Shown in pieces: positions 1,491 through 4,582 of a stretch of DNA of 4,582 bases (position 1 is its first letter; each line of letters starts with the position of its first letter). The notes under the pieces are model-generated. The model saw only the letters and a program-made list of their open reading frames with translations. It ran no database searches and was not told where the DNA came from. The position numbers and the translations under genes were made by a program. Origin of the DNA: a virus (lineage: Duplodnaviria; Heunggongvirae; Uroviricota; Caudoviricetes); IMG/VR virus record IMGVR_UViG_2531839237_000015; one strand, 5' to 3'.

Positions 1491-2012
1491 TTATTGAGGC
1501 CGAACGTAAACCTTCAGAATTGAAGAGATGCGTTCGGCTTCTTCGTTTGTGATATCGTTAGGAATGCCTTTAATCGTTACTGTAACCCCTGATTCAGGTC
1601 GAAGAACTACTGGAAGATCATAGGTATGAAGTGCATTAGCCTTGCCTTCGACTTTTGTTGGTTCGCCAGTCAAATCTTTTTCCTCACTGGATTCTTTGTC
1701 AATCGGAGTGTATGGGATTTCTTCACCAGACTGGAAAGCTACAAACTTTTTGATTGCACTTTCCATGCGGCTTTTATATGCAGTAATGCTGCTGTCGCTA
1801 GGCTTCGGCTCAGTTGCGTTGATGTATCGCTCGGCAAGCTCATTCACATCAAGCTGAGTAACATCACCCATTTCCTCTTCTTGGACTACCGTTAAGAGGC
1901 GAGCGGATGAGTTTTTTAAATTTCGAGCGGTGGCCTCCTTCATTATGTTCAGCGACATAAGCTCTTCAAGGAAGTCCTTGAATGCCTGCACGCTAACGTT
2001 TGACTTTGCCAT
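1491..2012 (-). CDS. Hypothetical protein, 173 aa, non-lambda cargo gene occupying the rexA/rexB slot downstream of cI
   Basis: Clean ATG-initiated ORF, the only long ORF between cI and the N operon. Predicted helical N-terminal region, acidic Ser/Glu/Lys-rich linker and a compact C-terminal region (LHTYDLPVVLRPESGVTVTIKGIPNDITNEEAERISSILKVYVRPQ). No similarity to RexA, RexB or any family I can name. Flanked by its own promoter-like and terminator elements. Confidence 0.7.
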   Translation of the reverse strand: MAKSNVSVQAFKDFLEELMSLNIMKEATARNLKNSSARLLTVVQEEEMGDVTQLDVNELAERYINATEPKPSDSSITAYKSRMESAIKKFVAFQSGEEIPYTPIDKESSEEKDLTGEPTKVEGKANALHTYDLPVVLRPESGVTVTIKGIPNDITNEEAERISSILKVYVRPQ

Positions 2013-2513: not shown

Positions 2514-3230
<717 letters not shown>

Positions 3231-3237
3231 TTAAATC

Positions 3238-3303
3238 TATCACCGCAAGGGATAAATATCTAACACCGCGCGTGTTGACTGCTTTACCTCTGGCGGTGAT
3301 AAT
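3238..3303. promoter_or_regulatory. Right operator OR3-OR2-OR1 with divergent promoters pRM (leftward, cI) and pR (rightward, cro)
   Basis: OR3 TATCACCGCAAGGGATA (3238-3254), OR2 TAACACCGCGCGTGTTG (3261-3277), OR1 TACCTCTGGCGGTGATA (3285-3301). pR -35 TTGACT (3275-3280) and -10 GATAAT (3298-3303). Near-identical to lambda OR. Confidence 0.92.
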
Positions 3304-3318
3304 GGTTGCATGTACTAA

Positions 3319-3528
<210 letters not shown>

Positions 3529-3535
3529 ATAACCC

Positions 3536-3567
3536 CGCTCTTACACATTCCAGCCCTGAAAAAGGGC
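3536..3567 (+). promoter_or_regulatory. nutR (boxA and boxB); the rho-dependent tR1 region follows, about 3570-3640
   Basis: boxA CGCTCTTA (3536-3543) and boxB GCCCTGAAAAAGGGC (3553-3567), exactly as in lambda nutR. Confidence 0.85.
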
Positions 3568-3624
3568 ATCCAATTAAACCACACCTATGGTGTATGCATT
3601 TATTTGCATACATTCAATCAATTG

Positions 3625-3670
3625 TTATCTAAGGAAATACTTACATATGGTTCGTGCAAACAAACGCAAC
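3625..3670 (-). promoter_or_regulatory. pRE promoter region with CII binding site (TTGC-N6-TTGC), leftward
   Basis: Minus strand TTGCGTTTGTTTGC at plus 3656-3669, overlapping the first cII codons, as in lambda pRE. Confidence 0.6.
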
Positions 3671-3940
3671 GAGGCTCTACGAATCGAGAGTGCGTTGCTT
3701 AACAAAATCGCAATGCTTGGAACTGAGAAGACAGCGGAAGCTGTGGGAGTTGATAAGTCGCAGATCAGCAGGTGGAAGAGAGACTGGATTCCAAAGTTCT
3801 CAATGCTGCTTGCTGTTCTTGAATGGGGGGTCGTTGACGACGACATGGCTCGATTGGCGCGACAAGTTGCTGCGATTCTCACCAATAAAAAACGCCCGGC
3901 GGCAACCGAGCGTTCTGAACAAATCCAGATGGAGTTCTGA
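3647..3940 (+). CDS. cII: CII transcriptional activator, 97 aa
   Basis: Translation MVRANKRNEALRIESALLNKIAMLGTEKTAEAVGVDKSQISRWKRDWIPKFSMLLAVLEWGVVDDDMARLARQVAAILTNKKRPAATERSEQIQMEF matches lambda CII. True start is ATG at 3647; the ORF-track start at 3587 is an upstream in-frame extension. Confidence 0.95.
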   Translation: MVRANKRNEALRIESALLNKIAMLGTEKTAEAVGVDKSQISRWKRDWIPKFSMLLAVLEWGVVDDDMARLARQVAAILTNKKRPAATERSEQIQMEF

Positions 3941-3962
3941 GGTCATTACTGGATCTATCAAC
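3886..3962 (-). ncRNA. oop: oop antisense RNA with its intrinsic terminator overlapping the 3' end of cII
   Basis: Position is colinear with lambda oop. Minus-strand terminator CGCTCGG-ttgccg-CCGGGCG followed by TTTTTTATT ends near 3886. The exact 5' end is inferred from lambda colinearity. Confidence 0.6.
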
Positions 3963-3972
3963 AGGAGTCATT

Positions 3973-4533
3973 ATGACAAATACAGCAAAAATACTCAACT
4001 TCGGCAGAGGTAACTTTGCCGGACAGGAGCGTAATGTGGCAGATCTCGATGATGGTTACGCCAGACTATCAAATATGCTGCTTGAGGCTTATTCGGGCGC
4101 AGATCTGACCAAGCGACAGTTTAAAGTGCTGCTTGCCATTCTGCGTAAAACCTATGGGTGGAATAAACCAATGGACAGAATCACCGATTCTCAACTTAGC
4201 GAGATTACAAAGTTACCTGTCAAACGGTGCAATGAAGCCAAGTTAGAACTCGTCAGAATGAATATTATCAAGCAGCAAGGCGGCATGTTTGGACCAAATA
4301 AAAACATCTCAGAATGGTGTATCCCTCAAAACGAGGGAAAATCCCCTAAAACGAGGGATAAAACATCCCTCAAATTGGGGGATTGCTATCCCTCAAATTG
4401 GGGGATTGCTATCCCTCAAAACAGGGGGACACAAAAGACACTATTACAAAAGAAAAAAGAAAAGATTATTCGTCCGAGAATTCTGGCGAATCCTCTGACC
4501 AGCCAGAAAACGAAACCAGCGCCGCCTGGGTAG
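3973..4533 (+). pseudogene. O: Replication initiator O, disrupted: lambda-like for about the first 141 codons, then frameshifted by a 23-bp iteron duplication and ending at a stop inside gsk-like sequence
   Basis: N-terminal translation MTNTAKILNFGRGNFAGQERNVADLDDGYARLSNMLLEAYSGADLTKRQFKVLLAILRKTYGWNKPMDRITDSQLSEITKLPVKRCNEAKLELVRMNIIKQQGGMFGPNKNISEWCIPQNEGKSPKTRDKTSLKLGDCYPS matches lambda O. After codon 141 (from 4396) the frame departs from lambda (NWGIAIPQNRG... instead of KQGDTKDTITKEKRKDYSSENSG...). The C-terminal P-interaction domain is absent. Confidence 0.85.
4321..4470 (+). repeat. ori-lambda-type replication origin: five 18-19 bp iterons plus the AT-rich region (lambda has four iterons)
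   Basis: Iterons ATCCCTCAAAACGAGGGA (4321-4338), ATCCCCTAAAACGAGGGA (4341-4358), ATCCCTCAAATTGGGGGA (4365-4382), ATCCCTCAAATTGGGGGA (4388-4405), ATCCCTCAAAACAGGGGGA (4411-4429). Copies three and four are a perfect 23-bp tandem duplication (4365-4387 = 4388-4410). A-rich tract at 4430-4470. Confidence 0.85.
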
Positions 4534-4582
4534 TGGGTATCGATCAAACGCTGGTCGATATTGAAGCGAAAGTGGATGATGA
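4500..4582 (+). CDS. gsk: Internal fragment of inosine-guanosine kinase (Gsk-like), lacking its first ~25 codons and its promoter; continues beyond the right window edge
   Basis: Frame with codons starting at 4503 translates PENETSAAWVVGIDQTLVDIEAKVDDE, which I recall as E. coli Gsk residues about 27-53. Sequence to the left of 4500 is lambda O. Confidence 0.55.

Follow-up and report, generated by a model that had tools for sequence, protein, structure and literature searches.

The window, by which we mean the whole stretch of 4,582 nucleotides that was analysed, carries in its right-hand part the genes cI, cro and cII of a lambda-type phage, followed by a replication gene O that contains an origin within its coding sequence and, at the very end, by a fragment of the chromosomal gene gsk. 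The phage genes of this part are the following.

2514..3227, minus strand: cI repressor of the lambda immunity type, 237 aa, protein identical to the cI of prophage Sp1
3328..3528, plus strand: cro (Pfam Cro)
3647..3940, plus strand: cII (Pfam Phage_CII; matches Sakai ECs_0276)
3973..4533, plus strand: frameshifted O open reading frame, 186 aa, from the ORF translation compared with lambda O

Over positions 2602-4513, the part that holds cI, cro, cII and O, a single base (3281) differs from prophage Sp1 of E. coli O157:H7 Sakai (= CP-933H in EDL933), and positions 3900-4513 are 100% identical to Sp1/CP-933H in O157:H7 genomes. The window gave no Rfam matches.

A 23-nt tandem duplication in the origin and the reading frame of O

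An earlier note, made from the letters of this DNA, had described a perfect 23-bp tandem repeat in the origin. Direct comparison of the two units, at 4365-4387 and 4388-4410, revealed ATCCCTCAAATTGGGGGATTGCT twice, head-to-tail and free of mismatches, and Tandem Repeats Finder reported the array at 4365-4420 with a period of 23, 2.4 copies, 100% matches and a score of 112. The period-23 identity stays perfect to 4420, ten bases past the second copy, because the first 10 nt of iterons 3 and 4 are alike (ATCCCTCAAA); within that stretch the 23-nt unit can thus be placed in more than one register. By chance, a sequence of 4.6 kb would be expected to contain ~6.5e-11 perfect 23+23 tandems.

A pattern search of the window found iteron starts at 4321, 4341, 4365, 4388 and 4411 (n = 5), while the lambda record has four annotated iterons at 39034-39118, in agreement with the count of five against four in the earlier note. 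When aligned to the lambda origin, positions 4321-4474 were identical save for one 23-nt insertion, and the array could be divided as follows.

4321..4338, plus strand: iteron 1, ATCCCTCAAAACGAGGGA, same as lambda ITN1
4341..4358, plus strand: iteron 2, ATCCCCTAAAACGAGGGA, from the pattern search and lambda comparison
4365..4410, plus strand: tandem duplication of the 23-nt unit, that is iteron 3 (18 nt) with the 5-nt spacer TTGCT; an insertion relative to lambda
4365..4382, plus strand: iteron 3, copy one, ATCCCTCAAATTGGGGGA, from the pattern search and lambda comparison
4388..4405, plus strand: iteron 3, copy two, the extra copy, for which lambda has no counterpart
4411..4429, plus strand: iteron 4, ATCCCTCAAAACAGGGGGA, its first 10 nt the same as those of iteron 3, a direct repeat that would permit slippage
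4430..4470, plus strand: AT-rich part of the origin, 78% A+T, identical to lambda

The boundaries of the AT-rich part were set by homology to the lambda ori at 39034-39160 (PMC3349717). The array has the architecture of the lambda origin, in that dyad-symmetric 18-19-bp iterons lie inside O, with four of the five at 4321-4429 identical to lambda ITN1-4, and an AT-rich unwinding region follows just 3' of the last iteron.

The duplication falls within O itself, since this gene encloses the origin, and its 23 nt are not divisible by three; the O frame is therefore lost after residue 141, the codon at which the earlier note had placed the shift. Up to that residue the product equals lambda O. The next 45 residues are out of frame, one fewer than the 46 codons of that note, and a stop follows at 4531-4533. 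Taking out one 23-nt copy from the O gene of the window restored the O frame. The Pfam domain Phage_rep_O (PF04492; aa 22-115; E = 1.5e-36; full profile length) lies upstream of the frameshift and is thus kept, so that the origin-binding N-terminal domain expected of a functional initiator is present; we found no solved structure of this domain. The continuous 299-aa frame, including the C-terminal half that interacts with P, is absent: the frameshift removes 158 of the 299 residues, namely the linker and the C-terminal half. The C-terminal half of lambda O recruits P-DnaB. Furthermore, P does not lie directly downstream of O, as this position is occupied by gsk in the window, and in Sp1 only fragments of P are found. 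The sequenced O amber mutants include Oam317, in which a nonsense codon spares the N-terminal 160 residues (PMC6022878). Judging from the frameshift and from lambda genetics, the frameshifted O can soundly be taken to have lost its initiator function, as the earlier note had held.

Functional lambdoid phages do differ in iteron number. There are six in the Stx phages 933W and P27, where the two additional ones are iteron-1-like, lie upstream and add 39 bp, or 13 codons in frame, and these extra iterons are needed for replication of P27-derived plasmids (PMC7466680). It could be proposed on these grounds that the five-iteron origin is likewise a functional variant with an in-frame O, but the reading-frame analysis already refutes this and we assign it next to no probability: the 23-bp addition breaks the frame, which stops after 45 codons in the window and runs into multiple stops in Sp1, and the two iteron-1-type repeats with their 13 in-frame codons are absent from the window. 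A five-iteron arrangement, and with it a related functional O that carries it in frame, was found in none of 50,697 phage records, all of which lack the duplication junction.

Distribution and age of the duplication in O157:H7 prophages

The allele was counted with a 37-nt query that only the true duplication junction can seed. This query was substituted for a 90-nt query across the array, which was dropped for counting as the iterons align out of register (84.6% class). The junction was found at 100% identity in 191 of 5,426 complete E. coli genomes, and also in 7 IMG/VR contigs and one plasmid-labelled O157 record. Within a sample of 60 rows taken evenly from the ranking of the 191 genomes, every strain name that gives a serotype gives O157. 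No junction was found in GTDB, with one genome per species, or in JGI metagenome contigs, which argues against a wide spread of the allele beyond the O157 group. These counts also bear on whether the extra iteron is an assembly or sequencing artefact that conceals a true count of four. Short tandem repeats are miscountable and the junctions of the window are odd at both ends, but a 46-nt array fits easily in one read and the same junction recurs in 191 independent complete genomes, the 7 IMG/VR contigs and the plasmid-labelled record; such an artefact is hardly credible and is effectively refuted by these sequences.

The defect is already recorded in annotations of O157:H7 genomes. In Sakai, O is the pseudogene ECs_0277 of 923 bp (= 900 + 23), and in strain TR01 the NCBI pipeline PGAP names it 'replication protein, frameshifted'. 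Elsewhere in Sp1, cI, cro and cII are intact, the integrase gene has become a pseudogene and only pieces of P are left. In O157 Sakai, Asadulghani et al. saw neither circularisation nor replication nor packaging of this prophage, whose replication function they scored defective (PMC2669165). As the exact duplication junction and its flanks are shared, the duplication is, on its distribution, an allele that the cryptic prophage Sp1/CP-933H carries across the O157:H7 lineage, and is neither private to the window nor fresh in it. The allele is real, ordinary, and already known and annotated as a pseudogene, and is of low interest as such. It explains at the base-pair level why O of Sp1/CP-933H is a pseudogene, so that its value lies mainly in correct annotation, and the 37-nt junction provides a simple sequence marker of the Sp1/CP-933H prophage allele.

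The age of the lesion can be gauged from the rest of the gene. Removal of one copy from Sakai Sp1 O gave an open frame of 299 codons whose product is identical to lambda O at 299/299 residues. Between the repaired gene and lambda there are 15 nucleotide differences, all of them synonymous and 13 located 3' of the frameshift; on this pattern, they must have built up under purifying selection on the O frame. As the repaired product equals lambda O and every difference is silent, the duplication is the sole lesion in O and is young in evolutionary terms. By this comparison it is young relative to the divergence from lambda, and can be called recent in the evolutionary sense only.

The same five-iteron duplication was found in a second prophage background, on contig L003 at 12045-12904 (minus strand). 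O of this contig has an N-terminus of the Stx-phage type (G17E, L37I, D44V), and P and ren are intact; G17E and L37I have been reported for O of P27/933W (PMC7466680). The presence of five iterons in this background implies that the allele has moved between prophages through recombination. The O gene of L003 has an additional 1-nt insertion in the A-run at codons 3-4, which may be either another genuine lesion or a sequencing error in a homopolymer. Compensation of the duplication by this base (23 + 1 = 24) was considered and rejected, as codons 4-141 would be out of frame; the insertion leaves the N-terminal domain unrescued, a further point against a functional five-iteron variant.

Mosaic structure of the window and the O/gsk junction

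The window is, by sequence, not a plain Sp1 locus, having a left arm of the Stx-phage type and a right end in gsk: an Sp1 locus would be a thrW-integrated remnant with the Sp1 left arm and an O-P-tail-fibre right arm, which the window lacks. Positions 18-2612 are 100% identical to the N-to-cI region of O157:H7 Stx-converting phages such as VT2-Sakai, Stx2 II and 2851, and the recombination joint between this arm and the Sp1 immunity region lies at 2602-2612, inside the 3' end of cI. A hybrid of the same kind was observed on IMG/VR contig L009, with the crossover slightly rightward, at 2614-2660. L009 shares the left joint with the window and lacks the right one (O/gsk). The two hybrids suggest an exchange between an Stx prophage and Sp1, real or assembler-made, via similar cI 3' ends.

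Three further features of the mosaic were noted. The base at 3281 is G in the window and A in Sp1, L009 and lambda, and lies in the OR2-OR1 spacer, directly after the PR -35 hexamer TTGACT. An ORF of 173 aa (1491-2012, minus strand) lies between N and cI, in the place of rexAB in lambda; it gave no Pfam match, is 100% conserved in O157 Stx phages, and is annotated there as hypothetical. Positions 1-17 have no match to O157 Stx phages, which indicates a different neighbouring gene and a further mosaic boundary. These 17 bases match the start (RBS and ATG, minus strand) of a gene for a 322-aa hypothetical protein in the wrbA prophage of strain 2013C-3342, which is also found in O26 prophages and is annotated there as a superinfection exclusion protein.

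At the right end of the window, the last 84 bases (4499-4582) are 100% identical to gsk, and the junction with O is formed by a short sequence common to both genes.

4499..4513, plus strand: 15-nt microhomology CCAGCCAGAAAACGA, common to O and gsk, which forms the junction (sequence comparison)
4514..4582, plus strand: fragment of chromosomal gsk (inosine/guanosine kinase), which together with the overlap is 100% identical from gsk nt 75 (codon 25)

The earlier note had proposed that the duplication also inactivates a putative fusion. The frame arithmetic of that proposal is right, in that an O gene with a single copy of the 23-nt unit would continue in frame into gsk (…SSDQPENETSAAWVVGID…), but the junction itself found no support elsewhere: it was absent from complete E. 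coli genomes and from plasmids, a 30-nt query across it was absent from GTDB species genomes and from JGI metagenomes, and the exact 186-aa frameshifted product that spans it is not on record in the assembly index. At the junction point, both Sp1 and the otherwise matching L009 go on as normal O. In O157:H7 TR01 the O and gsk points are on the same strand and are separated by 262 kb that include the essential genes dnaX and adk. The join is implausible as a simple chromosomal deletion in a haploid, as the loss of these genes would be lethal. We also considered the prophage that supplies positions 1-17 as a neighbour of gsk, and rejected it since this prophage sits at wrbA in strain 2013C-3342. 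The microhomology itself is nothing unusual, since chance alone would give a 900-nt gene and a 5.5-Mb genome approximately nine 15-mers in common. The O/gsk junction is either a real product of illegitimate recombination in an unusual genome arrangement or the chimeric end of a contig, and would matter only if confirmed in source material.

Origin of the duplication and comparison with known systems

We consider it highly probable (about 0.9) that the O gene and origin of the window are the dead initiator and origin of a lambda-type cryptic prophage, and that they arose through a repeat-mediated 23-bp duplication. The four-iteron origin of lambda contains the repeats that such an event would require, as iterons 3 and 4 share their first 10 nt and lie exactly 23 bp apart. 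The ancestral origin would likewise have had four iterons, the last two both starting with ATCCCTCAAA at this same distance of 23 bp, and mispairing of the nascent strand between these direct repeats during replication could have duplicated the intervening 23 bp; an unequal exchange between sister molecules would give the identical product. The frame would have been lost after residue 141 and with it the linker and the P-recruiting C-terminal half, so that no replication complex could assemble. The allele would then have been fixed in a prophage remnant that was also without an intact P and without an intact integrase, and have been inherited, and at times recombined, across the O157:H7 lineage.

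The earlier note had read the duplication as recent replication slippage. Slippage between 10-nt repeats 23 bp apart is a plausible mechanism, which unequal recombination fits equally well, while the word recent holds in evolutionary terms and not for the window, as the allele is lineage-wide. When folded as single-stranded DNA and compared with shuffled controls, the five-iteron stretch gave z = -4.5 and that of lambda z = -2.7, with neighbouring iterons pairing with each other; this predicted fold is consistent with a slippage-prone region and is no proof of one. The duplication would provide a neat natural case of repeat-mediated slippage in an origin that lies within its own initiator gene.

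Whether the allele spread through neutral decay or through selection is a separate matter. A non-excisable lambda prophage that is able to fire its origin kills the host upon derepression, and survivors of this replicative killing (RK-minus) either have a small insertion or deletion in O or P or have suffered a large deletion, one end of which lies in the prophage (PMC6022878). Sp1 has kept cI, cro and cII intact but not its integrase, now a pseudogene, and its frameshift resembles a natural version of the lesions in such survivors. A positively selected duplication, in which an O-null allele disarmed a non-excisable prophage against replicative killing, would also fit the absence of any other lesion in O and the 15/15 synonymous differences from lambda, as would be expected of a single early knockout. 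P is also truncated in Sp1, and had P gone first, O would already have been irrelevant and the frameshift neutral; we regard positive selection as possible but doubtful. The text of PMC6022878 has no mention of an iteron duplication, the word 'duplication' being absent from it.

It could further be imagined that oop, the five iterons and the origin-binding domain of O (aa 1-141) together serve as a decoy, or in a dominant-negative way, and thereby keep out superinfecting phages whose replication is of the lambda type. Plasmids with oop and iterons ITN3-4 silence the replication of rep-lambda phages (PMC3349717), the whole Phage_rep_O domain is kept upstream of the frameshift, and the allele stands at 100% identity across O157:H7 genomes. 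The published silencing came from multicopy plasmids, in contrast to the single chromosomal copy here, an intact cI should keep PR repressed, and the youth of the O157:H7 lineage explains the 100% conservation equally well. On this analogy with the plasmids, it is very improbable that a cassette under repressor control guards O157:H7 from superinfecting or co-resident rep-lambda phages by titrating or poisoning lambda-type replication complexes; if it did, the cassette would be a natural chromosomal version of the 'inhibition phenotype' of the plasmids.

The dead lambda-type origin and initiator proposed here can be set beside four known systems. Lambda itself (J02459; ori 39034-39160, O 38686-39585) has the same iteron and AT-rich sequences and an identical O over residues 1-141, but has four iterons and an intact 299-aa O, whereas the window has an extra iteron 3 with its spacer and a broken frame. 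Sp1/CP-933H shares the five iterons, the 23-bp duplication and the frameshift, together with the same cI, cro and cII proteins; unlike the window, which switches to gsk after 4513 and left of 2602 follows the Stx-phage-type N region, its O extends to the usual 3' end, with P fragments and tail-fibre genes beyond it. The Stx phages 933W and P27 likewise carry additional iterons within the O gene of a lambda-type replication module, but their addition is the in-frame 39 bp described above (PMC7466680), whereas that of the window is one copy of iteron 3, 23 bp long and out of frame. The RK-minus ilr/ori mutants (Rambach r, Hayes ilr) resemble the window in that small insertions or deletions in the iteron and AT-rich part of O stop initiation in a non-excisable prophage, and differ from it in having been selected in the laboratory and in that the sequenced ori mutants are in-frame deletions (PMC6022878).
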